From an uncultured Phycisphaerales bacterium (GTDB lineage: Bacteria > Planctomycetota > Phycisphaerae > Tepidisphaerales > Tepidisphaeraceae), in assembly GCA_963755915.1 (NCBI GenBank), contig CAVWLP010000003.1, forward strand, positions 1,248,001 to 1,312,000: a DNA stretch of 64,000 nucleotides. The letters run 5' to 3'. Positions 37,300 to 61,970 of this stretch are shown piece by piece (within the stretch, counting starts at the first letter, position 1; the number at the start of each line of letters is the position of its first letter). The notes beneath the pieces were generated by a model. It was not told where the DNA came from. It saw only the letters and a program-made list of their open reading frames with translations, and ran no database searches. The position numbers were made by a program, and so were the translations under genes.

Positions 37300-37343
37300 A
37301 ATTCGCCTGTCGCGAGGCCAGCCCGTAGAATTGAGGATTCGCT

Positions 37344-38626
37344 ATGGACTTTTTCAATTACAAGAACGGCGAGCTTTATTGCGAAGATGTACCCGCGGAC
37401 AAAATTGCGCGCGACGTCGGGACTCCGGCGTATGTTTATTCAAAGGCGACGTTTCTGCACCATTACCGGCAGATTGCAGAGGCGTTTGCAGAGCTGAAGC
37501 CGACGATCTGCTTTTCGGTGAAGAGCTGCGGGAATATCCACATTCTGAGAATGCTGGCCCAGGAGGGGTGCAGTTTTGACGTGACCAGCGGCGGGGAGCT
37601 TTTCCGGCGCTAAAGGCGGGGGGCAAGGCGAAGGACATCATCTACGCGGGCGTGGGAAAGACGGATCAGGAGATCGCGGATGCGATCAACGCGGGGATCG
37701 CGGCGTTCAACCTGGAGTCGGAAGCGGAAATTGAGAATATCGACCGCGTCGCCAGGTCGCTTGGCAAGACCGCGGTGGGCGCGATCCGCATCAACCCTGA
37801 TGTCGACGCGAAAACGCACGTCAAGACGAGCACCGGGAAAAAAGGGGACAAGTTCGGCGTGGACATCGAACGCGCCCAGCGTGTTTTTGCCCAATATCGC
37901 GATTTGAAAAACCTTCGCGTGGCGGGAGTGCATATTCACATCGGCTCGCCGGTCAATCAGATTGAGCCGTATGTGGAAGCCGTTCGGAAAATCACCGCAC
38001 TGGCGGACGATCTGATCGAGCGCGGGTACGCGATCGAATGGTTCGACATGGGAGGCGGCTTCGGCGTGAACTACGAGCGCCCGGACCAGGCGCTTCCGGT
38101 CACGCAGCATGCGAAGGCGCTGATTCCGCTGCTGAAGGATAAGCCCTACAAGCTCGCGCTCGAGCCCGGCCGGTACATCGCCGGAAACGCGGGCATTCTT
38201 CTGACGCGCGTTCTCTATCGCAAAACGAGTGGCGAGAAGAAATACGTCATCGTGGATGCGGGGATGAACGACCTGATCCGGCCGACGTTGTATGAGAGTT
38301 ATCACTATATCTGGCCGGTGAAGCCGGACGCGGGGAACGTGCCGAATCAGCGGAACCGGGCGGCGGAGCCGCAGGGGGGAGAAATCGTGGACGTGGTGGG
38401 GCCGATTTGCGAGAGCGGGGATTATCTTGCGAAGAATCGGCCGTTGCCGGAGACGAAGCGCGGGGATCTGCTGGCGGTATTCACGGCGGGAGCCTATGGA
38501 TTCGCGATGAGCAGCAATTACAACAACCGGCCGCGCGCGCCGGAAGTGCTGGTGGAGGGGGATCGGTATCGCATTATCCGGCGGCGGGAAACGCTGGATG
38601 ATCTGATCGCGCCGGAACTCGTCTAG
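37344..38626 (+). CDS. lysA: Diaminopimelate decarboxylase (frameshift near 37606)
   Basis: GTPAYVYS, FSVKS, DVTSGGEL, RINP, KFG, HIHIGS, GGGFG, EPGR, GPICESGD, GAYG..MSSNYN. Confidence 0.93.
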
Positions 38627-38638
38627 AGCGTGCTCTAT

Positions 38639-40150
38639 ATGCAGGAAGCGGAGATCAATATCGAGCAGTCGCTGCGCGTTGCGCTGGGGCATCACCAAGC
38701 GGGGAGGCTGAAGGAAGCGAGGGAAATTTACCGGCAAATATTGGCGGCAAATCCGCAGCAGTGTGATGCGCTGCGGCTGATGGGGATGATCGCGCGGCAG
38801 GAGGGACGCGCGGAGGAGGCGGTGGATTGGATTCGGCGGTCGGTGGCGAGCGATCCCAGCCGGGCGGAGGGGCATCATAATCTGGGGGATGCGCTGAGAA
38901 GCGCGGGGAAGCGGGAAGAGGCGATTGTGGAGTATCGGAAGGCGATTGTGCTTCAGCCGGGCTGGGCGGAGGCGCATGGGGCGATGGGGGAGGCGCTGCG
39001 CGAGCAGGGGAAACTGGAGGAGGCGCTGGAGGCGTTTCGGAAGGTGGTGCAAATCAACCCGTCGATGCCGGCGGGATATCTGGCGCTGGGCAAGACGTAT
39101 CACGCGCAGGGGGAGCGAGGCAAGGCGCTGGCAGCGCTGGCGACGGCGATTCAGCTTCGGCCGAATTCGGTGGATGCGCATTACTGGCTGGGAAATGTGC
39201 TATGGGACGAGGACCGGATAGGGGACGCGATTACGGCATATAAGAAGGCGCTGGAGATCAATCCGGCGTTTGCATCGGCGAACTGGAATATCGGCAAGAT
39301 CTATATGCGGCAGGGGAAGCTTGAAGACGCGGTGATTTATTTCCGGCGGGCGGCGGAGATGAACCCGACGAATGCCAAGGCGCATTTTTTCCTGGGACAT
39401 ATATTGAAGAAGGCGGGACGACTGCCGGAGGCGGAAGCGGCGTTCCGGGAGGCGATGCGGCTGAAGCCGGATACGCCGGACTGGAAATTCAGGCTTTCGG
39501 CGCTGAGCGGGGACCGGCTGACGACGACGACGCCCCCGCAGTATGTGCGCGAGCTTTTTGATGAATATGCGGCGAAATTCGACAAGCATCTGGTGGAAAA
39601 GCTGAATTACCGCGGCCCGCAGCAATTGCTAGATGCGGTGCGCGCGGTGACGGCGCGGCAGGGGATGGACGTGCTGGACCTGGGGTGCGGGACGGGATTG
39701 TGCGGCGTGGCGATTCGTCCGCTGGCGCGGCGGCTGGTGGGGGTGGACCTTTCGCCAGCGATGCTGGCGGAGGCGCGGCGGAGGGGGATTTATGACGAGC
39801 TGATTAATGGCGAGCTTGTGCAGGCGATGGGCGGGATCAAAGAACAGTTTGATCTGATCATTGCGGGGGACGTGCTGATTTACGTGGGCGATTTGTCGGG
39901 ATTCATGCCGGCCGCGGCGGGGCTTCTGCGAAGCGGCGGGCTGATGGCGTGCTCGGTTGAAGAATATGACGGGACGGGATTTTTTCTGCACAGCGAGGAG
40001 CGGTTTGCGCATTCGCTGGCTTATATGCGCGACATGGGAGCGCCGTGCGGTCTTTCGGAGGTGGCGGCGACGAAAGTGGCGCTGAGGCGCAATGCGAGCG
40101 TGGATGTGCCGGGTTGGGTTGTGGTGATGGCGAAGGGTAATTCCGTTTGA
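38639..40150 (+). CDS. TPR-repeat protein with C-terminal class I SAM methyltransferase, copy 1
   Basis: Multiple TPRs; LFDEYAAKFD.HLVEKLNYRGP; LDLGCGTG; GVDLS..ML; RFAHS. Confidence 0.9.
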   Translation: MQEAEINIEQSLRVALGHHQAGRLKEAREIYRQILAANPQQCDALRLMGMIARQEGRAEEAVDWIRRSVASDPSRAEGHHNLGDALRSAGKREEAIVEYRKAIVLQPGWAEAHGAMGEALREQGKLEEALEAFRKVVQINPSMPAGYLALGKTYHAQGERGKALAALATAIQLRPNSVDAHYWLGNVLWDEDRIGDAITAYKKALEINPAFASANWNIGKIYMRQGKLEDAVIYFRRAAEMNPTNAKAHFFLGHILKKAGRLPEAEAAFREAMRLKPDTPDWKFRLSALSGDRLTTTTPPQYVRELFDEYAAKFDKHLVEKLNYRGPQQLLDAVRAVTARQGMDVLDLGCGTGLCGVAIRPLARRLVGVDLSPAMLAEARRRGIYDELINGELVQAMGGIKEQFDLIIAGDVLIYVGDLSGFMPAAAGLLRSGGLMACSVEEYDGTGFFLHSEERFAHSLAYMRDMGAPCGLSEVAATKVALRRNASVDVPGWVVVMAKGNSV

Positions 40151-40316: not shown

Positions 40317-41819
40317 ATGCCGCAAGAGCAAATCAATATCGAGCAATCGCTGCGAAATGCACTGTCGCTTCACGCGGCTGGAAAGCTGACAGAGGCCGGG
40401 GAGATTTATCGCCAGATCCTGGCGGCCAGCCCGACACATTACGATGGGCAGCGGCTGCTGGGGGTGGCGGCGATGCAGGAGGGTCGGCTCGAAGAGGCCG
40501 AGCAATTGATCCGCGGGGCGATCGCGCGTGATCCGAAACGGGCAGAGGGTTACCACAATCTTGGCGATGTTCTGCGCCGCGGAAAGAGGAATGAAGAGGC
40601 GATCGCCTCGTATCGGAAATCGATCGAGCTTCAGCCCAACTGGGCGGAGGCGCACGCGGCGCTGGGAGATACACTGCGCGAGATGGGGCAGGTGGATCAT
40701 GCGGCGGAGGAGTTTCGGAAAGTCGTCGAGCTGAAGCCGCAGTTTGCCGCGGGTCACCTGGCGGTAGCGAAGATGCTGCACGCGAAGGGCGAGCGGGCGG
40801 CGGCGCTGGCGGCGATTGCAAAGGCGCTGCAGTTGAGAGCGGATTATCCGGATGCGTATGACTGCATGGGGAACGTGCTGTGGGAAGAGGGGCGAGTGGA
40901 CGAGGCGATCGAGGCATATTCCAACGCGCTGCGGATCGACCCGTCGTGCGTGCAGGCGAACTCACACATGGGCAAAATTCTCGTGCAGCGGCAGCGGATC
41001 GGCGAGGCGCTCATCTACGTCCAACGGGCAGTCGAATTGGAACCGAAGAATGCGGAAGCCTATTTTTTTCTGGGGCACGTGCTGGCGCGGTCGGGAAGGA
41101 AGGAGGAGGCGCTGGAAACGTTCAGGCAGGGAATGCGGCTGGATCCGAACGCGCACACGTGGAAGTTTCGGGTTTCGGCGCTCAGCGGCGACGGAATGAC
41201 AAAAACTGCGCCGGCGGATTACGTGCGGGGTCTGTTTGACAGATATGCGTCAGATTTCGAGAAGCATCTCGTGGAGAAGCTGAATTACCGCTCGCCGGAG
41301 CATATTTTTGAGGCGGTGAAACAGGCGACCCAACGCAACGAGCTGGACGTGCTGGATGCCGGGTGCGGCACGGGCCTGTGTGGCAAGCTGTTTCGACCGA
41401 TGGCGCGTCGCCTGGTGGGCGTGGACCTGTCGCCGGCGATGATTGTGGAGGCCACGCGGAGCGGGATCTATGACGAGCTGATTACTGGAGAAGTCGTGGA
41501 GGCGATGGGGGCGATGAAAGAGCAGTTTGATCTAATCGTTGCGGGAGATGTGCTGGTTTACGTGGGAGATTTGTCCGGGTTTATGCCGGCCGCGGCGGGG
41601 CTACTGCGAAGCGGCGGAATGCTGGCTTGCTCGATCGAAACTTATCTTCAAGAGGGATTTATCCTGCACAGGGAGGAGCGGTTTGCCCACTCGCTGGGGT
41701 ACATGCGGGAGATGGCGTCGGCGTCAGGCCTGAAGGAGATATCGGCAACACTGGTGGCGCTGCGGCGGCACGGAGAGATTGACGTGCCGGGGTATATCAT
41801 CGTGGTGGGAAAGACATAA
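40317..41819 (+). CDS. TPR-repeat protein with C-terminal class I SAM methyltransferase, copy 2
   Basis: Collinear paralogue of 38639-40150 (INIEQSLR, LDAGCGTG, GDVLVYVGDLSGFMPAAAGLLRSGG). Confidence 0.9.
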   Translation: MPQEQINIEQSLRNALSLHAAGKLTEAGEIYRQILAASPTHYDGQRLLGVAAMQEGRLEEAEQLIRGAIARDPKRAEGYHNLGDVLRRGKRNEEAIASYRKSIELQPNWAEAHAALGDTLREMGQVDHAAEEFRKVVELKPQFAAGHLAVAKMLHAKGERAAALAAIAKALQLRADYPDAYDCMGNVLWEEGRVDEAIEAYSNALRIDPSCVQANSHMGKILVQRQRIGEALIYVQRAVELEPKNAEAYFFLGHVLARSGRKEEALETFRQGMRLDPNAHTWKFRVSALSGDGMTKTAPADYVRGLFDRYASDFEKHLVEKLNYRSPEHIFEAVKQATQRNELDVLDAGCGTGLCGKLFRPMARRLVGVDLSPAMIVEATRSGIYDELITGEVVEAMGAMKEQFDLIVAGDVLVYVGDLSGFMPAAAGLLRSGGMLACSIETYLQEGFILHREERFAHSLGYMREMASASGLKEISATLVALRRHGEIDVPGYIIVVGKT

Positions 41820-49460: not shown

Positions 49461-49683
49461 GGTGAGGCTGAAGGAGCGGGCAGTTCCCACATTTTCCCAA
49501 AATTTCTCACTTTTCGGGGTTTCTCACACCGAGCGATACTTTGCAGATCGGCCCCCTCCCCAACCCTCCCCCGGATTACCGGGGGCGGGGGTTAAGGCGC
49601 GCGCGAGGGCGAGCAGTTGGAGTTCGGTGAGGTTGTAGGAGCGGGAAGCTCTCACTTTATCCCAAAATATCTCACTTTCGGGG
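49461..49683. repeat. Two degenerate ~58-bp direct repeats flanking a REP hairpin
   Basis: 49461-49519 versus 49626-49683 (ggtgagg.tg.aggagcggg...cccaaaat.tctcacttt..gggg); REP at 49546-49590. Confidence 0.7.
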
Positions 49684-53180: not shown

Positions 53181-53229
53181 GCCCTCACCCCCACCCTCTC
53201 CCGGAGTACCGGGCGAGGGGGTAAGAGGG
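53181..53229. repeat. REP-like element CCCTCACCCC.ACCCTCTCCCGGAGTACCGGGCGAGGGG (type copy; about 7 relatives in the window)
   Basis: Relatives near 19790-19860, 30045-30080, 33146-33190, 49546-49590, 59358-59422 (inverted) and 59446-59494. Confidence 0.8.
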
Positions 53230-53415: not shown

Positions 53416-53859
53416 ATGTTGAAGACCAAGGTTTTGCATCCCGAAATGCTGGGAGGCCTAGCGTCGGCCGGCCATCTTGCCAAGGTGTTGATCAGCGATG
53501 GGAATTATCCCAGCAGCACGGTTCCCAATCCGCGCCGAAGGTTGTGTGGGCGAATTTTACGCCGGGCGTGGTGGATGCGTGCACGATCCTGCGGCTGGTG
53601 TGCGGGCAGATTCCGATTGAGGCGGTGGAAGTGATGGCACCGGCGCAGCGGGATGTATGCGATGCAGAATGATCCGCCGATCTGGGATGAGTACCGCAAA
53701 ATCCTCCGTGAGGAGGCGGATTTTCGCGGGGATCTCGTCCAGCACCAGAAACCGGAATTCAATGCGCAGGCGCGAAGCGAGAATTTGGCACTGGTGATCG
53801 CGACGGCGGAGACACAGATTTACGCGAATATTCTTTTGACGGTTGGAGTCGTTCAATAA
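53416..53859 (+). CDS. RbsD/FucU-family sugar mutarotase (frameshift near 53535)
   Basis: MLK...LHP...LA.AGH...LISDGNYP; C-terminal LVIATAETQIYANILLTVGV. Confidence 0.85.
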
Positions 53860-53875
53860 CAAAAAGGAAAGAGCC

Positions 53876-55153
53876 ATGAAAAATGAAAATCGACCTAGGA
53901 CGCTGGGAACGAAGCCGAGTTTTGGATTTGGGGATCGGCTTGGTCTGGCGACGCCGGGACATGCGGCGGCGCTGAAGCGGAGCGGATCGGGGATTCTGCC
54001 GATCTTCGCGCAGCAGTCGATCCGGGAGATGACGCGGACGAGCCGGACGCCGCAGCAGGTGATGGAGGATGCGCAGAACGGGCTTCGGCAGGCGGGATAT
54101 ACGGGAATTCAGGGGGCGGACGCCGACCATTTGAAAACGCCGGCGGATGTGGAGAGGACGGCGCAGGCGGGGTTTGTCTTTTTCACGATCGATCCATCGG
54201 GGGAAGTGGACGCGAACGCGGACGATTACAACGCGGACCAGCTTGCGGAGAAATTCAAGCCGCTGGCGGGGGAGATTGCGTGGCTGGATCAGTATGAGGG
54301 AAAGAAAATCAAGCTTTTCAGTGGGACGACGATTGATTTTTCGTCGGCGGTGTGCCGGCGGGCGGCGGTGAAATATGGCCGGGCGATCGCGATGGCGACT
54401 AAGCTGGCGAAGCACATCGAGCAGACGGCTAGAAAATTGAATCAGCCGTTCGAGATTGAATTGAGCGTGGATGAGACGCCCAAGCCGACGACGCTGGCGG
54501 AGCATTTCATCATTGCCGACCAGTGCGTGAAGGCGGGGATGAAGCTGGTGAGCCTGGCGCCGAGGTTTATCGGGGAGTTCGAAAAGGGCGTGGATTACAA
54601 GGGGGACGTGAGCGGGCTGGAGAAATCGCTGAGCGATCATGCGGCGATCGCCAAACAGCTTGGGCCATATAAGCTGAGCCTGCACAGCGGGTCGGACAAG
54701 CTTTCGATTTATCCCTCGCTGGCGCGGGCGACGAAGGGACTGTTTCACGTGAAGACAGCGGGAACAAGCTACCTGGAAGCGCTGCGAACGGTGGTTCGCG
54801 TGGATCCGAAACTTTTTCGGGAAATCATCAAGCTTTCGCGCGAGCGGTATGACACGGACAAGGCGACGTATCACGTTTCGGCGACGCTGCAATCGGCGAA
54901 GCCGGCGGATCAGATTTCTGATGCGAAGGGATTGGAGAAAGCATACCTTGGGCTTTGGGCGGATGTGCCGAAGGGGACGGGGTTGAGCGATCTGGGCCGG
55001 CAGATCGTTCACTGCACGTTTGGGTCGGTGCTTTGCGACCCGAAGCTGGGGCCGCAGGTGAAGCAGTTGATTGCCGAAAATCAGTCGCTGTATACGCAGA
55101 TTCTGGACGAACATTTTGGGAAACATCTGGATGCACTGAAAGCAGGAATGTAA
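53876..55153 (+). CDS. uxaE: Tagaturonate/fructuronate epimerase
   Basis: SFGFGDRLGLATPGH, AQQSIREMTRT, GADADHLK, ELSVDET, SLAPRFIGEFEKGVDY, KLSLHSGSDK, HVKTAGTSYLEA. Confidence 0.92.
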   Translation: MKNENRPRTLGTKPSFGFGDRLGLATPGHAAALKRSGSGILPIFAQQSIREMTRTSRTPQQVMEDAQNGLRQAGYTGIQGADADHLKTPADVERTAQAGFVFFTIDPSGEVDANADDYNADQLAEKFKPLAGEIAWLDQYEGKKIKLFSGTTIDFSSAVCRRAAVKYGRAIAMATKLAKHIEQTARKLNQPFEIELSVDETPKPTTLAEHFIIADQCVKAGMKLVSLAPRFIGEFEKGVDYKGDVSGLEKSLSDHAAIAKQLGPYKLSLHSGSDKLSIYPSLARATKGLFHVKTAGTSYLEALRTVVRVDPKLFREIIKLSRERYDTDKATYHVSATLQSAKPADQISDAKGLEKAYLGLWADVPKGTGLSDLGRQIVHCTFGSVLCDPKLGPQVKQLIAENQSLYTQILDEHFGKHLDALKAGM

Positions 55154-55165
55154 GGAATTAAATTT

Positions 55166-56248
55166 ATGATCAATGTTAAAAATGCGAAGGACGCGAAGTT
55201 TGATCTGATGAGCCTGGGCGAATGCATGATTCGCCTCTCGCCGCCGGGGCATGGGCGAATTGAGTTTGCCAACACGCTGGAGGTTTGGGCGGGCGGCGGG
55301 GAATACAACGTGGCGTATGCCCTGGCGCGGCTGGGGCTGCGGACGGGGTTTGCCAGCCGGCTGGTGGATAATCCGGTTGGGAAGATCATTTTGAATCACG
55401 CCAGATCCGTGGGGATGGACGTGAGCCACGTGGCGATCGCGAAATATGACGGCGTTGGGCGGGCCGATCGGATCGGGCTGAATTTTACGGAGGTGGGGAC
55501 GGGCGTTCGCGCCAGCGTGACGATGTACGACCGCGGGCACTCGGCGGCGAGCAATCTGAAGCCGGGGATGATCGACTTCAAGAAACTTTTTAAAGAGCAG
55601 GGGAGCCGGTGGCTGCATACGGGGGGGATCTTTACCGCGCTTTCCGATGGGACGGCCGCGGTGTGCAAGGAGGCGATTCTGGCCGCCAAAGAGTCGGGGA
55701 CGATCATCAGCTATGACCTGAATTTTCGCTCGAAATTGTGGACGGCGCAGAAGGCGCAGCAGGTGACGAAGGAACTGGTGCCACACCTGGACTGCCTGAT
55801 CGGAAACGAAGAGGATTTCCAGAAGGTGCTGGGGTTCGAAGTGGAAGGGGTTGATGAGAATCTCTCGGCGCTGGATACGTCGGCGTATAAGAAGATGGTG
55901 GAGAAGGTCGTAAAGGCTTATCCGAATGTTAAGGTCGTCGGCACGACGCTGCGGGAAGTGAAATCGGGGCTGATCAATAACTGGTCGGCGATTTTGTATG
56001 TCGATGGGAAATTCTATGAGAGCAGGCGGTTTGATAATCTGGAGATCGAAGACCGGGTTGGCGGCGGAGATGGATTTTCCAGCGGGTTTGCCTACGGCTT
56101 CCTGACCGGGAAGACGCCGCAGGAATGCGTTGACCTGGGGGCGGCACACGGCGCACTGCTTCAGACGACGCGCGGGGATACGAGCATGATCGACCTGGAA
56201 GAATTGACGCATGTGTTCAAGGGCGGGAGCGCCCGGATCAAACGGTGA
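55166..56248 (+). CDS. PfkB-family sugar-acid kinase (KdgK/KguK-like)
   Basis: GGGEYNVA, YDR, YDLNFRSKLW, GNEEDF, DRVGGGDGF. Confidence 0.9.
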   Translation: MINVKNAKDAKFDLMSLGECMIRLSPPGHGRIEFANTLEVWAGGGEYNVAYALARLGLRTGFASRLVDNPVGKIILNHARSVGMDVSHVAIAKYDGVGRADRIGLNFTEVGTGVRASVTMYDRGHSAASNLKPGMIDFKKLFKEQGSRWLHTGGIFTALSDGTAAVCKEAILAAKESGTIISYDLNFRSKLWTAQKAQQVTKELVPHLDCLIGNEEDFQKVLGFEVEGVDENLSALDTSAYKKMVEKVVKAYPNVKVVGTTLREVKSGLINNWSAILYVDGKFYESRRFDNLEIEDRVGGGDGFSSGFAYGFLTGKTPQECVDLGAAHGALLQTTRGDTSMIDLEELTHVFKGGSARIKR

Positions 56249-57216
56249 ATGAAGCGATGAAAATTTTATTGACGACGACGAGTTTTCAGGACACGCCTGG
56301 GCCGCATCACGAGGCGCTGAAGAAATCGGGATTTGAGATCGTGACGGCGCGCGGGCCGCTGACCGAAGCGGAAATGCTCGACCACGCCAAGGCGGGGTTC
56401 GATGGATTTCTGAATGGCGATGATGTGATCACCGCGGCGGTAATCGACGCGGCGCTGCCGAAGCTGAAGGTGATCGCGAAATATGGGATTGGGCTGGATT
56501 CGATCGACGTGAAGCATGCGACCGCGAAGAAAATTCCTGTGCTCTTTACGCCGGGCGTGAATCATACGACGGTGGCGGAGCATTGCTTTGGGCTGATGAT
56601 CGCGCTGGCGAAACATTTTTGGCCGCACCTTCGCTCGACGAAGAAGGGGGAATGGAAGCGGATCACGGGCAACGAGCTTTACGGCAAGAAAATCGCCGTG
56701 CTGGGCGTGGGGCGGATTGGGAAGGAAATCATCAAGCGGGCCAGGGCGTTTGATATGAAATCCGTCGGCTATGACCTCTATTGGGACGAGAATTTTGCGA
56801 AGGAGTATGACGTTCCGCGGGCGGGAACCGTTTTGGAGGCGGTTCGCGATGCGGATGTGGTTTCGCTGCACATGAACCTGGACGATAAGAATCGCGGGAT
56901 GTTCAACAAGGACCTGCTGAGCAAGATGAAGAAGGGTGCTTGGCTGATCAATACGGCCCGCGGCGGGCTGGTGGTTGAAAAGGATATCGCCGAGGCTTGC
57001 AAGAGCGGGCACCTTGGGGGATATGCCACGGACGTGCTCGACAAGGAGCCGCCGGCGGCGGACCATCCGTTCCGGGAGATCGATAATATCATCGTCACGC
57101 CGCATGTGGGAAGCCGGACGCTGGAGAGCGTCGAGCGGCAGGCGATGCGGGCGGTGCTCAACCTCGTCAATTTCCTCAAGGGCGACAAGGACTATATTCA
57201 AGCAAATCAGTTCTAG
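56245..57216 (+). CDS. D-isomer-specific 2-hydroxyacid dehydrogenase
   Basis: YGIGLDSID, VAEH, GVGRIG..., NTARG, DVLDKEP, TPHVG; no ACT domain. Confidence 0.9.
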   Translation: MNEAMKILLTTTSFQDTPGPHHEALKKSGFEIVTARGPLTEAEMLDHAKAGFDGFLNGDDVITAAVIDAALPKLKVIAKYGIGLDSIDVKHATAKKIPVLFTPGVNHTTVAEHCFGLMIALAKHFWPHLRSTKKGEWKRITGNELYGKKIAVLGVGRIGKEIIKRARAFDMKSVGYDLYWDENFAKEYDVPRAGTVLEAVRDADVVSLHMNLDDKNRGMFNKDLLSKMKKGAWLINTARGGLVVEKDIAEACKSGHLGGYATDVLDKEPPAADHPFREIDNIIVTPHVGSRTLESVERQAMRAVLNLVNFLKGDKDYIQANQF

Positions 57217-57272
57217 CTTGCCGCTTCTTGTGGTAGTCTTTCCGACCGAACTTAAAGAACGGAGTTTCGAAC

Positions 57273-58802
57273 ATGCCTCAAACCGCCGTCGCTGATATTG
57301 GGTTGATCGGTCTTGCTGTGATGGGTGAAAATCTGGCATTAAACATTGCCGATCACGGGTTCAAGGTTGCGGTGTACAACCGAACCACCGCGGTGATGCA
57401 GAAATTCATCGCTCGCGAAAAACCGCCGGGTGGGTTGGTGGGTTGCGAAACGGTTAAGGACTTGGTCCAGGCGATTAAGAAGCCGCGGAAGTTTATCATT
57501 CTGGTGAAGGCCGGCCCGCCGGTCGATGCGGTCACGAAGGAATTGATCGACGCCGGTGTGGAGAAAGACGACATTATCGTCGATTGCGGCAACTCGCTGT
57601 GGACGGACACGATCCGCCGTGAGAGGGATTACGCGGCCAAGTGCAAGTTTTTCGGGTCGGGGGTTTCGGGTGGGGAACTTGGGGCGCGGTTTGGGCCGTC
57701 GATGATGCCTGGGGGCGATCCGGATTCGTGGAAGCATCTTAAGCCGATCTGGGAAGCGGTCGCGGCCAAGGTGGATGCGAAGACCGGCAAGCCGATCGAG
57801 AATTATGCGCCGGGCAAACCGGTGATCGGCGGGCGTGCCGTGCACGGCCTACATCGGGCCGAACGGGGCCGGGCACTATGTGAAGATGGTGCACAACGGG
57901 ATCGAATACATCGACATGCAGCTCATCGGCGAAGCCTACTGGCTGCTGGTCAATCTGCTCGGGGTGAAGGCGCCGGACCTGTCTAAGATTTTCGCGCAGT
58001 GGAACCAGGGGGATCTGGATTCCTATCTGATCCAGATCAGCGCCGACATTTTGCAGCAGAAAGACCCGCTGCATCCCGAGGGATATTTCGTGGATTACGT
58101 GCTGGATGCGGCCGGACAGAAGGGAACCGGGAAATGGACGAGCACCAACGCGCTGGACATGGGGATTCCCGCCAACGCGATCGCCGAGGCGGTTTTCGCG
58201 CGTTGCATCTCGGCGCTGAAGGAAGAGCGCGTTGGAGCGTCAAAGCGCTCAAGGGCCCGGACCCGGCTTACAAGGGGGATCGCGACGAGCTGATCAACGC
58301 GGTGCGCGATGCGCTTTACTGCTCGAAAATCTGCGCGTATGCCCAGGGCTTTCAATTGATGCGGGAGGCGCAGAAGGAATACAAGTGGAAGCTGAACTTT
58401 GCCGAGATCGCGGCGATCTGGCGCGGCGGGTGCATCATCCGGGCGCGGTTCCTGCAGAAGATCACCGATGCGTATAACCGCAATTCCGACCTGGTGAACC
58501 TGCTGCTGGATCCCTACTTCGGCGAGCAGATCACCAAGTCGCAGGGCAACTGGCGGAAAGTGATCGGTCTCTCCGCGAGCAACGGCATTCCCGCGCCGGC
58601 GTTCATGAGCGCCCTGGCGTATTACGACGGTTATCGCAGCGCCCGTCTGCCGGCCAACCTGCTGCAGGCGCAGCGGGATTATTTCGGGGCCCACACCTAT
58701 GAGCGGGTGGACTCTCCGCGCGGAAAATTCTTCCATCTCGACTGGCCCGAACCCAAGCGCCCGCAGATTGCGATTCAGCCGGGCAGCGGGGGCGGGCACT
58801 AG
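57273..58802 (+). CDS. gnd: 6-phosphogluconate dehydrogenase, decarboxylating, long form (frameshifts near 57830 and 58240)
   Basis: [64 protein letters not shown]. Confidence 0.95.
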
Positions 58803-58817
58803 CGATTTCGCCGACTT

Positions 58818-59321
58818 ATGCCTCGACGCGGAACCTTTTACGCGATCACCCCGGAAGAAGCGGAGCGGCTGCTCGCGCTGGTCGGGAACGACATGGAGTT
58901 GGCGAAGGAATGCCTCGAGCTCTGGACGCCCGAGCGCCAGCGGCAACGCTTCATCGCCCCCGCCGATCACGCATGGGAAGTGCTCCACCGCTGCCTGGCG
59001 GATGGGACGTTGCGCGGAATCGGCGCCGGTTCAGACCCGCTGCAGTGGTGCGTGCTGGGCGGCAAAAACCTCCACCAGGGCAAAGAATACATCGTCTGCT
59101 ATGTCACGCCGGAGCAGACGGCGAAAGTGGCCGAGGAGCTGGATGACATTGATGTCGAGTGGTTCGTGGGACGATACAAACTGCTTCCCACGGCGGGATA
59201 TACGGGGCCGATCGATAACGAGGATTTTCAATACAACTGGGAGTATTTCACCAACGTGCGGAACCTGTATTCGAAGGCGGCGGGGGATGGGCGCGGGGTG
59301 GTGTTTGTGACGGATCAGTGA
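58818..59321 (+). CDS. YfbM/DUF1877-family protein
   Basis: DHAW..LHRCL, GG, YVTPEQ..KVA..L, L.(Y)..AA..G..V.F. Confidence 0.7.
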   Translation: MPRRGTFYAITPEEAERLLALVGNDMELAKECLELWTPERQRQRFIAPADHAWEVLHRCLADGTLRGIGAGSDPLQWCVLGGKNLHQGKEYIVCYVTPEQTAKVAEELDDIDVEWFVGRYKLLPTAGYTGPIDNEDFQYNWEYFTNVRNLYSKAAGDGRGVVFVTDQ

Positions 59322-59566
59322 ATCCGGACAGCGCTGGGCAATGTTAGAATGAGAGGTTCCCTCTTACCCCCTCGCCCGGCATGCGGGAGGCAGTCCTCCG
59401 GGAGAAGGTTGGGATGAGGGCCTAAAGCGAATCACGCAGAAAACGGCCCTCACCCGCGCTGCGCTTGCCCTCTCCCGGAGTACCGGGCGAGGGGAAAGTC
59501 TTCGGCAATCATTTTGCGTACCTATCACGGGGATTTCGGGATATCATTCTGGCTTACAGGAATCGT

Positions 59567-59784
59567 ATGACGGCAATTCTGGAAAAAGCGTTTCATAAGG
59601 CTTCGGGTTTGCCGAAAGGCGCGCAGGCGCAGTTGCGCGACAGATGCTCGACGACATCGAAGCGGAACTGAAGTGGGATAAGACGCTGGCAAATTCGCAG
59701 CCACTGATTGAGAAGATGGCGGGCAAAGCCCGTCGGGACAGAAAACGCAGAAAGACGGTCCGCAAAGGGTTCGACGAGTTGTGA
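59567..59784 (+). CDS. Putative type II antitoxin (frameshift near 59636)
   Basis: Hand-joined: MTAILEKAFHKASGLP...Q.../QMLDDIEAELKWDKTLANSQPLIEKMA...GFDEL*; stop overlaps the toxin start (GTGA). Confidence 0.7.
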
Positions 59785-60050
59785 CTTCGGAGCTCACCGC
59801 CGATTTCCGCGCCTGCTTCAGACGGCTGCCGGATCGTATTAAGCGTCAGGTGCGCAGGAATTATAAAATTTGGAAGCGAAATTCATCACATCCGAGCCTC
59901 GATTTCAAGCGGGTGGGCAGGCTGTCGCCGGTATACTCCATTCGCGTGGGGCTGGGGTGGAGAGCCCTTGGGCTGGTTGAGCACGATACCGTGACTTGGT
60001 TTTGGATTGGCTCGCACGCCGAATATGATCGGCTGGTCAGGCGAGTTTAA
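59781..60050 (+). CDS. RelE/ParE-superfamily toxin
   Basis: 89 aa, basic; F...LP..I, HPSLDFKRV, YSIRVG..WRALG, WFWIGSHAEYD. Confidence 0.8.
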   Translation: MTSELTADFRACFRRLPDRIKRQVRRNYKIWKRNSSHPSLDFKRVGRLSPVYSIRVGLGWRALGLVEHDTVTWFWIGSHAEYDRLVRRV

Positions 60051-60068
60051 AGAGGATTTGAATTCAAT

Positions 60069-61163
60069 ATGGCTACCAACTTTATCATCCCCCCCAAGCT
60101 TCACAACGATCTGGTCGCGGCGGCGTATCGCCATCGCGGATACACTGCCGACGAAGCCGCGGCCGGCGCGAAGTTTTCGGAACTGACCGCGTGGCACGGG
60201 ATCAAAACCCACAATGCGATCAAGGCGCTGCACCTCGATGAACTGTTCGGCTCCAAAGCCGGGGGCTGCAAGCCGGGGGCGAAGATTGAGAAGCTGCCGA
60301 CCAAATTTAAAGCCGTGCAGAAATGGAACGCCAACCGCAAGCTGGGGCAGGCGACGGCTTTTGAGGCGATGGACGCAGCGATGAAAATGGCGGATGAATT
60401 CGGGGTGGGCGTCGTCGCCGTCGATAATGCGTTTCACTATCTCTGGGGCGGTGGATATGTGATCGACGCGGCCAACAAGGGGTATATCGCCTACACGTCC
60501 TGCACCGCGGCTTTGGCGGAGGTCGTTCCCTTCGGCGGAAAGTTTCCGACGCTGGGGACCAATCCGCATAGCTGGGGTTTTCCGACCAAAGACGTCATTG
60601 GGTTCCCCATCTGCATCGACTGGGCGACGAGCACCGTCGCCATGGGGCGGGTGCAGCAGTTCCTGCGGGAAGGCAAGCAGCTTCCGGCGGGCTGCGGCGT
60701 TGATAAAGACGGCAACGAAACGACCGATCCCGCCAAGATCGTTGCGCTGATGACTTTCGGGCAGCACAAGGGGTATGGCCTGTCGCTGATCGACGAGATT
60801 TACGCGGCTTACATCGGCGGGTCGCTGCCGACGATTCGCAACCGGTGGGACAAGGTTCCGGCGGGCGAAAAAGGAACCTGCTGCTTCTTCTTCCAGTGCA
60901 TTCATCCCGAAGCAATCTCCAGCGGCTCGTTCGCGGCCGGGCGCTCGCAAAAGGAAAACGTAAAAGCCGTGCTGGCAGACATCATGGGCCACGGCAACAG
61001 CGGGGCGATGCTTCCCGGGCAGATCGAAGCCAACGGGGCGGCGCTGAGCGCCAAGCACGGCGGCCTGCTTTTCACGCCCGCCGAGGTCGATGCGCTCGAG
61101 CAGATCGCCCAGGAAGCCGAGTTCAAATTCGATCGATCGCAACTTCAGAAAGTGGAGCTTTAA
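60069..61163 (+). CDS. Ldh_2-family (malate/L-lactate dehydrogenase type 2; DlgD/AllD/ComC-like) oxidoreductase
   Basis: HGIKTH, N..HY..GG.Y, GTNP, DWATS, D.DG..TTDP, HKGYGL, PG. Confidence 0.88.
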   Translation: MATNFIIPPKLHNDLVAAAYRHRGYTADEAAAGAKFSELTAWHGIKTHNAIKALHLDELFGSKAGGCKPGAKIEKLPTKFKAVQKWNANRKLGQATAFEAMDAAMKMADEFGVGVVAVDNAFHYLWGGGYVIDAANKGYIAYTSCTAALAEVVPFGGKFPTLGTNPHSWGFPTKDVIGFPICIDWATSTVAMGRVQQFLREGKQLPAGCGVDKDGNETTDPAKIVALMTFGQHKGYGLSLIDEIYAAYIGGSLPTIRNRWDKVPAGEKGTCCFFFQCIHPEAISSGSFAAGRSQKENVKAVLADIMGHGNSGAMLPGQIEANGAALSAKHGGLLFTPAEVDALEQIAQEAEFKFDRSQLQKVEL

Positions 61164-61165
61164 CC

Positions 61166-61970
61166 ATGTCGTACAACGGGTTTGATATTTCCGGAAAAGT
61201 GTGCCTGATCACCGGCGGCACCAGCGGGCTTGGCAAGGCGATTTCGCTCGGCTTCGCAAAGGCGGGGGCGAAGGTGGTGGCCGGCTCGACCACGGCGGGA
61301 AAAGTTGACGCGATGCGCAACGAACTGGGGGCAGGCAATGACGCGATCCAGGTCGATGTGGCCAACGAGCAAAGCGTCGTTGCCGCGATGAGCCATGTCG
61401 CGAAGAAATATGGAAGGCTCGATGCCGTTGTAAACGCCGCCGGCGTGATTCAGCGCAAGCCGTCGCTGGAGGTTTCCGTGGAGGAATTCGAGCGGATCGT
61501 GCGGATCAACCTGACGGGCAGCTTCATCGTCGCGCGAAGCGGCGCGGATCATGAAGGAACAGGCGCCGGATAGCCGCGGCCAGCGCGGGACGATCGTCTT
61601 CATTGCCTCGCTGAACAGCTTTATCTCGCTGAGCGAGGTGCTGGCTTATGCTTCGAGCAAATCCGGCGTGCTTGGGCTGATCCGCGGGCTGGCGAACGAG
61701 TGGGCGAGGTTTGGCATTCGCGTGAACGGCATCGCTCCGGGCCTTTTCCCGACGGATTTGAACCGCTCGCTGATTGAAAATACGCCGCGCGGCGACTTCA
61801 TGAGGGAGCACACGCCCGTCGGCCGGTTCGGCGACGCCGAGGAACTGGTCGGCGCGGCGATTTACCTGGTTTCCCCGGCGGCCAGCTTTACCGCCGGGCA
61901 TACGATGATCGTTGACGGCGGATTCATGTCGCGCGGGGTTGGCTTTCCGACGGCCGCCACGCCAAAATAA
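61166..61970 (+). CDS. SDR oxidoreductase, gluconate 5-dehydrogenase/KduD/fructuronate reductase-like (frameshift near 61537)
   Basis: TGGTSGLG, VNAAG, INL.G, ASL, YASSK, RVNGIAPGLFPTDLN, TP.GRFG..EEL, VDGG. Confidence 0.88.

Follow-up and report, generated by a model that had tools for sequence, protein, structure and literature searches.

A conserved dehydrogenase pair in a Tepidisphaeraceae sugar-acid operon: a candidate dehydratase-free route from 5-keto-hexonates to the pentose phosphate pathway

Overview

A stretch of 64,000 nucleotides from an uncultured Phycisphaerales soil bacterium (contig CAVWLP010000003.1, positions 1,248,001 to 1,312,000), called the window here, carries a sugar-acid operon at 53416-61970. 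The operon encodes an RbsD/FucU-family mutarotase, a UxaE-like tagaturonate/fructuronate epimerase, a PfkB kinase, a D-isomer-specific 2-hydroxyacid dehydrogenase (2-Hacid_dh), a decarboxylating 6-phosphogluconate dehydrogenase (Gnd), an Ldh_2-family dehydrogenase, and a short-chain dehydrogenase/reductase (SDR). With a confidence slightly above even, we read it as a dehydratase-free branch of 5-keto-hexonate/hexuronate catabolism, which would enter the pentose phosphate pathway through a redox inversion at C2, 6-phosphogluconate, and Gnd. The evidence consists of gene content, conserved linkage, gene fusions, and phyletic patterns. The conserved core of the gene set is the pair formed by 2-Hacid_dh and Ldh_2.

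The dehydrogenase pair

Relatives of the locus were collected in two surveys. An alignment of Ldh_2 was searched against 185,579 species genomes, where at least 600 stretches matched and 597 were confirmed, and a metagenome survey yielded 604 relatives. The best 80 loci of each survey were analyzed; these 160 loci stem from related lineages and do not count as independent cases. The best 80 genome loci belong to Planctomycetota (Phycisphaerae) and Verrucomicrobiota (Opitutae). The genes that accompany Ldh_2 are counted in Table 1.

Table 1. Genes accompanying Ldh_2 in the best 80 loci of each survey
Gene	Genome loci	Metagenome loci
2-Hacid_dh	56/80 (49 immediately upstream of Ldh_2, same strand)	68/80
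PfkB	21/80 (15 immediately downstream)	35/80
SDR	20/80	30/80
UxaC	3/80	17/80
Gnd	8/80	4/80
Eda	2/80	3/80
UxaE-like	4/80	1/80
UxuA	0/80	0/80

The two dehydrogenases also occur as a single protein. In a search for longer Ldh_2 relatives, 51 protein clusters of 653-718 amino acids were found to fuse both 2-Hacid_dh domains to Ldh_2. The 2-Hacid_dh part of one such protein (P0039) is N-terminal (residues 4-316) and the Ldh_2 part is C-terminal (350-695), which is the order of the separate genes. The fusions are known from this protein search only: none was present among the best 80 metagenome loci, where 68 of 68 pairs are separate genes. An apparent fused Ldh_2 of 656 amino acids in another genome (G009) was rejected, as the frame is simply open upstream of Ldh_2 and encodes no 2-Hacid_dh domain.

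The fusions point to consecutive redox steps, which would place the kinase ahead of the pair or behind it and not in the middle. The initial annotation had adopted the order of Pseudomonas KguK/KguD, with the kinase between the redox steps, and the fusions argue otherwise. Its broader proposal of a redox C2 inversion to 6-phosphogluconate followed by Gnd agrees with the linkage, the fusions, and the absence of the mannonate dehydratase UxuA from all 160 loci. The substrates of Ldh_2-family enzymes are L-(2S)-hydroxyacids. A fused protein with opposite stereospecificities is what would be expected for a C2 inversion, and both the adjacency of the genes and the single fused protein in 51 clusters fit the earlier suggestion that these dehydrogenases act as an inverting pair. 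For 2-ketoaldonate reductases of the D-2-hydroxyacid dehydrogenase family, one study reports the 2R product alone from 2-keto-D-gluconate (PMC12994016).

Neither dehydrogenase of the window can be equated with a characterized enzyme by curated models. 2-Hacid_dh scores 188 bits against PF02826 and 73.8 bits against PF00389. Its best NCBIfam model is phosphoglycerate dehydrogenase (PGDH; TIGR01327, 230 bits with a cut-off of 454), and it stays below the GhrB cut-off (NF011938, 135 of 492 bits). Twelve fused homologs share an invariant Arg, Glu, and His (R237, E266, and H285 in alignment A2), which we take to be the catalytic residues. Ldh_2 clearly belongs to its family (PF02615, 203 bits, cut-off 38.8) and passes none of the models for characterized members such as the 3-dehydro-L-gulonate 2-dehydrogenase DlgD/YiaK, AllD, and ComC (NF040650, 126/500; NF009750, 122/316; NF011599, 95/356; TIGR03175, 87/496). 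Its nearest PDB entries score 94-108 bits. In the open-access literature we found no paper that assigns the pair, although paywalled work may exist, and the literature searched gave no assignment of an Ldh_2 enzyme to the inversion of a hexonate by oxidation and re-reduction.

Both dehydrogenase families are broad in range, and with no curated equivalog reached, the pair may instead invert another center or substrate. Candidates are C2 of L-gulonate/L-idonate or L-galactonate/L-talonate, C5 of a uronate (L-iduronate to D-glucuronate), and small 2-hydroxyacids such as lactate and glycerate. By established stereochemistry, L-gulonate and D-mannonate differ at C5 only. The neighborhoods offer some hints in this direction as well, since a GlcD-like FAD-linked oxidase is divergently adjacent to the pair in 24 of the 80 genome loci, and some loci have sulfatases, GH95 fucosidase-family genes, and a lactaldehyde-dehydrogenase-type gene in its vicinity. 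However, the GlcD-like neighbor is on the opposite strand and is found mostly in closely related Opitutaceae (e.g., L117:7211-8689), and an idonate route would need two more dehydrogenases, of which none was seen. The linkage of the pair to the uronate isomerase UxaC, to an SDR of the mannonate oxidoreductase type, to Gnd, and to the gluconokinase GntK points to manno- and gluco-configured substrates. Furthermore, a role upstream of UxaC is opposed by the persistence of the pair without UxaC in the source genome and in 7 of 12 other genomes that carry the gene set. We therefore regard a different substrate as quite unlikely. As a separate observation, a GlcD/GlcE-like pair lies downstream of 2-Hacid_dh on the same strand in one genome (G388).

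Conservation of the gene set

A close relative of the operon is found in a metagenome-assembled genome (MAG) from the same family, Tepidisphaeraceae (locus L095), which reads FolE (opposite strand), RbsD, UxaE, PfkB, 2-Hacid_dh, Gnd, Ldh_2, SDR, and Apt. The clustering is far beyond chance, because the gene order is the same here and parts of the set are grouped again in the 160 further loci. Ldh_2 orthologs with 61-87% identity are present in Planctomycetota and Verrucomicrobiota. In a sample of 401 genomes of the phylum, which includes the source genome, they occur in 13; the 12 besides the source genome are referred to as module genomes. All nine other genomes of this sample with a PfkB at least 64% identical to the window kinase also have Ldh_2.

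The order of the genes varies. We found 2Hacid-Gnd-..-Ldh2-..-PfkB (G369 and G136), Gnd-Ldh2-PfkB (G117), SDR-PfkB-Gnd-2Hacid (G245 and G388), 2Hacid-Ldh2 (G356 and G399), and 2Hacid-Ldh2-SDR (G100 and G195), the last of which is extended by UxaC in G195. Verrucomicrobial operons read 2Hacid-Ldh2-PfkB-SDR-UxaC. Metagenome loci include this order together with SDR-UxaC-2Hacid-Ldh2, 2Hacid-Ldh2-PfkB-Gnd, and PfkB-Eda-SDR-UxaC-2Hacid-Ldh2. The SDR of the G195 operon scores 375 bits against the D-mannonate oxidoreductase model (NF006132), above the cut-off of 281. This comparative evidence supports PfkB, 2-Hacid_dh, Gnd, Ldh_2, and SDR as one functional unit, and it also supports a tie of the unit to hexuronate genes, since UxaC and an SDR of the D-mannonate oxidoreductase type share its operons.

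A GntK-type gene is present in two loci linked to the pair, by a curated match in G136 and by tblastn matches. The G136 locus (L053/L101, contig C47), a 2Hacid-Gnd-Ldh2-PfkB arrangement, contains the GntK-type gluconokinase (173 bits, above cut-off) along with two GH95 genes. UxuA does not accompany the pair in any of the 160 loci. Ten of the 12 module genomes have no match at all, one has a weak match of 25.7 bits, and one has a clear uxaC-uxuA cluster. UxaC is present in five of the 12, four of which are without UxuA. An ILVD_EDD-family gene that follows PfkB in G009 was considered as Edd or another sugar-acid dehydratase and was rejected, as it is IlvD (858 bits).

UxaE behaves differently from the rest of the set. 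UxaE-like genes are found in 70 of the 401 genomes, and neither Ldh_2 nor 2-Hacid_dh lies within 9 kb on either side in any of the 20 best UxaE loci, which rules UxaE out as an obligate member. The kinase is present in one of these 20 loci, gnd (on the other strand) in one, and RbsD/FucU in two. The usual neighbors are a Zn-dependent alcohol dehydrogenase (5/20), an aldo-keto reductase (5/20), and an AraC regulator (4/20). A xylose-isomerase-like TIM barrel is also among the usual neighbors, judging from the UxaE loci L032, L033, L035, L036, L042, and L043. The grouping proposed initially thus stands for PfkB, 2-Hacid_dh, Gnd, Ldh_2, and SDR, which recur in shuffled orders across the two phyla, but not for UxaE.

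The kinase and the Entner-Doudoroff alternative

The main alternative is the classical route through 2-keto-3-deoxygluconate (KDG). According to this explanation, PfkB is an ordinary KDG kinase that feeds an aldolase for 2-keto-3-deoxy-6-phosphogluconate (KDPG), Eda, encoded elsewhere. KDG would come from a non-orthologous dehydratase of the enolase superfamily or of the UxaA/GarD-like type, and the SDR would be of the KduD/UxuB type. The dehydrogenase pair would merely interconvert gluconate and mannonate or serve another sugar acid, and Gnd would be the cell's own enzyme.

The kinase itself gives this explanation its best support. Among NCBIfam models, the window PfkB matches best to one for a KDPG-aldolase/kinase fusion, over the kinase half (NF041633, 322 with a cut-off of 700). 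Models for KDG kinases match below their cut-offs (NF041332 for KDG and 2-keto-3-deoxygalactonate kinase, 186/440; NF040938, 115/400; NF052444, 25/400). The nearest structure, PDB 2afb (238 bits), is TM0067, deposited as a KDG kinase. We also searched for long forms of the kinase. None is fused to Gnd or to the dehydrogenases, and the only fusions, among three matches, are to MFS and to Eda.

However, the window kinase is separated from the Eda-linked KDG kinases (KdgK) in a quick maximum-likelihood tree of 48 sequences, which contains two clades with SH-aLRT support of 100 each. The clade of the window kinase, called clade A, has 13 rows, all from Planctomycetota, which lie beside Ldh_2, 2-Hacid_dh, or Gnd and in no case beside Eda. 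Of the 35 rows in the other clade, 10 are beside Eda; this clade holds the Eda-linked kinases together with the verrucomicrobial kinases adjoining Ldh_2. Kinases of the phylum that are about 50% identical adjoin Eda or are near it in 8 of 19 PfkB loci fetched. GntK is missing in seven of nine clade-A genomes and present in four of five genomes with the verrucomicrobial operon, although the numbers are small and the genomes related. This pattern fits a clade-A kinase that supplies the 6-phosphate where GntK is absent. None of the five verrucomicrobial operon genomes reaches the cut-off for Edd as a sink for 6-phosphogluconate.

The source genome was checked for the genes of the classical pathway. 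No uxaC and no uxuA were found in a genome-wide search, but one Eda and one UxaA/GarD-like gene are present. Eda (contig C3, 385108-385680) has no sugar-gene neighbors. [quoted passage not shown] No GntK-type gluconokinase was found, with gluconate kinases of the FGGY type outside the search. Lar_N (PF09861) has no match in the source genome (G000), which therefore has no LarA/GntE; a match is present in 6 of 18 genomes searched. The genome also encodes eight enolase-superfamily dehydratases, and its UxaA/GarD-like gene is located at about 4009200 of contig C2. This gene, a dehydratase of the GD_AH family, lies in a cluster (C2:4006900-4011200, L166) with an RraA-like aldolase, an enolase-superfamily dehydratase, and an SDR. 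The cluster is probably another sugar-acid pathway, and it could in principle supply 2-keto-3-deoxy acids.

Gnd of the window is a second copy, since a separate short-type gnd lies beside zwf in the same genome. The three pieces of the window gene span positions 1-163, 164-301, and 297-466 of TIGR00873, so that the profile is covered from 1 to 466 without loss. The intact ortholog in the close relative scores 658 bits (cut-off 426.7).

Several observations weigh against a dehydratase-free route to 6-phosphogluconate. The nearest curated and solved relatives of the window kinase are KDG kinases, and the genome has no other KdgK-like gene. An Eda is encoded both in this genome and in 11 of the 12 module genomes. 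In Verrucomicrobia, the PfkBs beside Ldh_2 belong to the canonical KdgK clade, some of these operons include Eda, and three of the five genomes with such an operon encode UxuA elsewhere. One long kinase homolog is fused to KDPG aldolase. A non-orthologous mannonate or altronate dehydratase may exist among the enolase-superfamily or UxaA/GarD-like genes. Gnd is linked in just 12 of the 160 loci. Five relatives have no gnd-like match besides the cluster gnd, so that part of the linkage may be that of a housekeeping gene. PGDH (PDB 1wwk), and not the known 2-ketogluconate reductases, is what 2-Hacid_dh resembles most, and the window SDR reaches no curated cut-off. Given the kinase family, its status as the only such gene, and the presence of Eda, the initial description of the pathway as bypassing KDG and the Entner-Doudoroff route was too strong.

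Nevertheless, the KDG route gives no reason why Gnd, 2-Hacid_dh, and Ldh_2 are repeatedly linked to the kinase and the SDR in several orders. It leaves unexplained the dehydrogenase fusions and the absence of UxuA from all 160 loci and most module genomes. The separate clade of the window kinase, the second gnd beside zwf, and the isolated position of Eda also do not favor it. We consider the KDG route unlikely and prefer the dehydratase-free route.

The proposed pathway

Every substrate named below, as well as the order of the steps, is a prediction. UxaE would convert D-tagaturonate to D-fructuronate, and the SDR would reduce fructuronate to D-mannonate. Ldh_2 is predicted to oxidize the 2S hydroxyl, giving a 2-keto intermediate, which the PGDH-like 2-Hacid_dh would re-reduce to the 2R (gluco) configuration. 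Overall, two active sites would carry out a manno-to-gluco 2-epimerization. The KdgK-related PfkB would add the 6-phosphate, most likely before or after the redox pair, and Gnd would decarboxylate 6-phosphogluconate to ribulose-5-phosphate. The fusions suggest that the kinase acts first, as in Lactobacillus suebicus, or last. A manno-to-gluco inversion appears to be the most economical assignment because of four features: the adjacency and fusion of the pair, the operons with UxaC and a mannonate reductase that never contain UxuA, the linkage to Gnd and GntK, and the persistence of the pair without UxaC.

The SDR assignment relies on relatives. The intact ortholog in the close relative (L095:11097-11915) matches models for GolD/DthD, KduD, gluconate 5-dehydrogenase, and mannonate oxidoreductase, and it scores 160.8 bits against the last of these (NF006132). 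UxaE of the window is a short form. It matches PF16257 (cut-off 27.1) over profile positions 70-475, without about 70 N-terminal positions, and it has 436 amino acids, compared with 489-507 in the solved enzymes PDB 9lhu (285 bits) and 6il9 (251 bits), in which the alignment begins at chain residue 84-105.

The initial annotation proposed a hexuronate pathway. The operons of relatives agree with this, as they contain UxaC and the mannonate-reductase SDR, but free galacturonate or glucuronate is an unlikely substrate here because the source genome is without UxaC. For the same reason, tagaturonate probably comes from an L-galactose-type sugar. An operon on contig C2 (2603812-2606614; L164:6774-9618) encodes an aldo-keto reductase, a lactonase resembling L-fucono-1,5-lactonase (299 bits, below cut-off), and a Zn-dependent alcohol dehydrogenase, and the genome has four GH95 genes. 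This trio resembles the L-galactose pathway of Bacteroides, and it may be a route for oxidizing L-galactose or L-fucose. The Bacteroides pathway ends in D-tagaturonate, the substrate of UxaE. Such a source fits the FucU-type mutarotase with which the window operon begins, and it would also explain the usual neighbors of UxaE in relatives.

Operon organization and assembly errors

All genes that the initial annotation had listed as a same-strand cluster were found by open reading frame (ORF) and profile searches at their positions on the + strand (Table 2), and its statement that the window lacks uxuA and KDPG aldolase was borne out, with no match to Eda or UxuA (tblastn, E 1e-12). The operon is tightly packed; the PfkB/2-Hacid_dh and Ldh_2/SDR junctions each overlap by 4 bases.

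Table 2. Features of the operon and its upstream region in the window
Feature	Position	Strand	Evidence
27-nt GC-rich palindromic intergenic repeat	53194..53220, upstream of operon; also 59468-59494 and 49564-49590		repeat search
RbsD/FucU-family mutarotase	53416..53859	+	PF05025 on both pieces, 53416-53634 and 53653-53859; single ORF in L095
UxaE-like tagaturonate/fructuronate epimerase, short form	53843..55153	+	PF16257, 403.6 bits, E 1.4e-120
PfkB kinase, clade A, KdgK-related branch	55166..56248	+	PF00294
D-isomer-specific 2-hydroxyacid dehydrogenase (2-Hacid_dh), PGDH-like	56245..57216	+	PF02826 and PF00389
Long-type decarboxylating 6-phosphogluconate dehydrogenase (Gnd)	57273..58802, three frames	+	NAD_binding_2 and 6PGD; TIGR00873
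DUF1877/YfbM protein	58818..59321	+	PF08974
Toxin-antitoxin pair	59465..60050	+	small ORF 59465-59671, putative antitoxin; ParE-like toxin 59781-60050, PF24732 ParE_like
Ldh_2-family (L-2-hydroxyacid type) dehydrogenase	60069..61163	+	PF02615, 203 bits, E 7e-60
Sugar-acid SDR, likely 5-keto-hexonate (fructuronate) reductase	61160..61970, two frames	+	adh_short and adh_short_C2, both pieces

The assembled sequence splits RbsD over two frames, gnd over three, and SDR over two, and the antitoxin is frameshifted as well; the initial annotation does not mention these breaks. These breaks are consensus errors and not pseudogenes, and the genes are intact in nature, because three lines of evidence agree. 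First, every ORF is intact in the close relative, relative to which the window is shifted by -1 at about 53536 and -2 at about 53649 in RbsD, by +1 at about 57834 and -1 at about 58240 in gnd, and by -2 at about 61539 in SDR. Second, short-read contigs of near-identical DNA from soil and sediment (runs X1, X2, and X4) bear compensating indels at every break. They add G after 53535 and GC after 53642 in RbsD, have one base fewer at 57830 and add G after 58244 in gnd, add CG after 61530 in SDR, and add G after 59634 in the antitoxin. Third, GroEL (C2, about 2597857-2599281) and zwf (C2:4512898-4513712) are also split over frames in the same genome. A pseudogene reading is thereby ruled out. The genome is assembled in 3 contigs and yet has a completeness score of just 81%, which is probably lowered by many small indel errors. 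An ornithine/diaminopimelate decarboxylase gene elsewhere in the window (37335-38626) is likewise split over frames.

The operon could also be seen as a chance neighborhood of housekeeping genes, namely a serA-like gene, gnd, a malate/lactate dehydrogenase gene, and a FabG-like SDR gene, some of them decaying. Three genes are frameshifted in the assembly, the cluster is split by the YfbM/toxin-antitoxin insertion, and folE and apt flank it. This explanation is extremely improbable, given that the frameshifts are assembly errors, the linkage is kept across two phyla, fusions exist, and 2-Hacid_dh remains below the SerA cut-off (230 vs 454 bits).

The YfbM and toxin-antitoxin block (58818-60050) between gnd and Ldh_2 is read as an insertion because the close relative, which lacks it, runs from gnd directly to Ldh_2. 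The YfbM protein is probably not a pathway member. The 27-nt palindromic repeat occurs in three copies in 16 kb, two of them identical, and the depth of the contigs is several-fold higher over 59180-59767. The raised depth suggests that the repeat is a multi-copy element like the repetitive extragenic palindromic (REP) sequences. A scan of the window for promoters and terminators was uninformative, as the counts were not above those in shuffled sequence. On the 5' side, the operon is flanked by folE and a PMT_2 membrane protein gene on the opposite strand, and on the 3' side by a PNPOx-like gene and apt. The remainder of the window consists of unrelated housekeeping and cell-surface genes. Among these, two tandem paralogs (38627-40150 and 40317-41819) join TPR repeats with an S-adenosylmethionine-dependent methyltransferase domain.

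Significance

Pectin, hemicellulose, algal polysaccharides, and animal glycans all supply hexuronates, which serve as major sources of carbon, and Planctomycetota and Verrucomicrobiota feature prominently among the bacteria that break these polymers down. If the proposal is correct, an unannotated gene pair would explain the use of uronates without mannonate dehydratase in many such bacteria, and the annotations 'phosphoglycerate dehydrogenase', 'Ldh family oxidoreductase', and 'KDG kinase' would be corrected for these genes. The reach of the pair is considerable, with at least 600 matching stretches in each of the two collections, genomes and metagenomes.

A more specific proposal is advanced tentatively, with a confidence somewhat short of even. 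The pair may be a redox epimerase with two active sites and internal recycling of the cofactor, and it may represent the missing gene or genes for a (6-phospho-)D-mannonate 2-epimerase, while the clade-A PfkB may be a new kinase for mannonate, gluconate, or 2-ketogluconate. With Gnd added, Planctomycetota and Verrucomicrobiota would be able to convert hexuronates and L-galactose to pentose phosphates without a dehydratase or an Entner-Doudoroff step.

Comparison with known systems

The Ashwell pathway consists of UxaC, UxuB, UxuA, KdgK, and Eda. The system described here shares with it UxaC in relatives, a fructuronate-reductase-type SDR, a KdgK-family kinase, and Eda in the genome. However, UxuA is absent from the source genome as well as from the 160 loci, and the dehydrogenase pair and Gnd stand in its place.

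Two-dehydrogenase chemistry toward gluconate has a precedent. In the GntII L-idonate pathway of E. coli, IdnD and IdnO invert one hexonate carbon by oxidation and re-reduction, leading toward gluconate and 6-phosphogluconate. The carbon is C5 in that case, and the enzymes belong to the Zn-dependent alcohol dehydrogenase and SDR families, so that both the position and the families differ from those of the window. In Pseudomonas, KguK (PfkB) and KguD (a D-2-hydroxyacid dehydrogenase) convert a 2-keto-hexonate to 6-phosphogluconate. The 2-ketogluconate arises there by periplasmic oxidation of glucose, with no Ldh_2 partner. The window has the same two families, but its 2-Hacid_dh is PGDH-like and below the GhrB cut-off, and the fusions suggest another step order. 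Among 2-ketoaldonate reductases (PMC12994016, PMC4870679), those of the D-2-hydroxyacid dehydrogenase family, to which 2-Hacid_dh of the window also belongs, give the 2R product.

A parallel in metabolism is the galacturonate route of L. suebicus. [quoted passage not shown] The route runs from UxaC, UxaE, and fructuronate reductase to mannonate and continues with phosphorylation, C2 inversion, and Gnd, without UxuA, KdgK, or KdgA, in agreement with our proposal. It differs in that the L. suebicus activities come without an epimerase gene, the kinase being attributed to GntK homologs, whereas here there are candidate genes only and the kinase is of the PfkB type (PMC6978723). If our reading holds, the pair would provide candidate genes for that orphan epimerase activity. 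The authors of that work also consider a redox-neutral route from galacturonate to pentose phosphates useful for engineering the fermentation of pectin-rich waste (PMC6978723). The L. suebicus work was the only match in the open-access literature for 6-phosphomannonate or a mannonate kinase, and none was found there for 2-keto-6-phosphogluconate together with glucuronate.

Another parallel is GntE of Thermotoga maritima, a D-gluconate 2-epimerase of the LarA superfamily with a nickel-pincer nucleotide, for which activity on D-mannonate was shown in vitro (PMC7583248). Mannonate from the hexuronate isomerase pathway, which includes UxaE, is converted by GntE, GntK, and Gnd via gluconate and 6-phosphogluconate into the pentose phosphate pathway (PMC7583248), which resembles the route proposed here. 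In contrast, GntE works as one cofactor-dependent enzyme and is related to neither dehydrogenase family, while the window pair would use a free 2-keto intermediate and NAD(P)-type chemistry. The metabolic link between mannonate and gluconate is thus known, and what appears to be new is that two dehydrogenases without homology to the known enzymes, widespread in two phyla, would provide it; if confirmed, it would be the third non-homologous solution to the manno-to-gluco conversion, after GntE and the L. suebicus epimerase.

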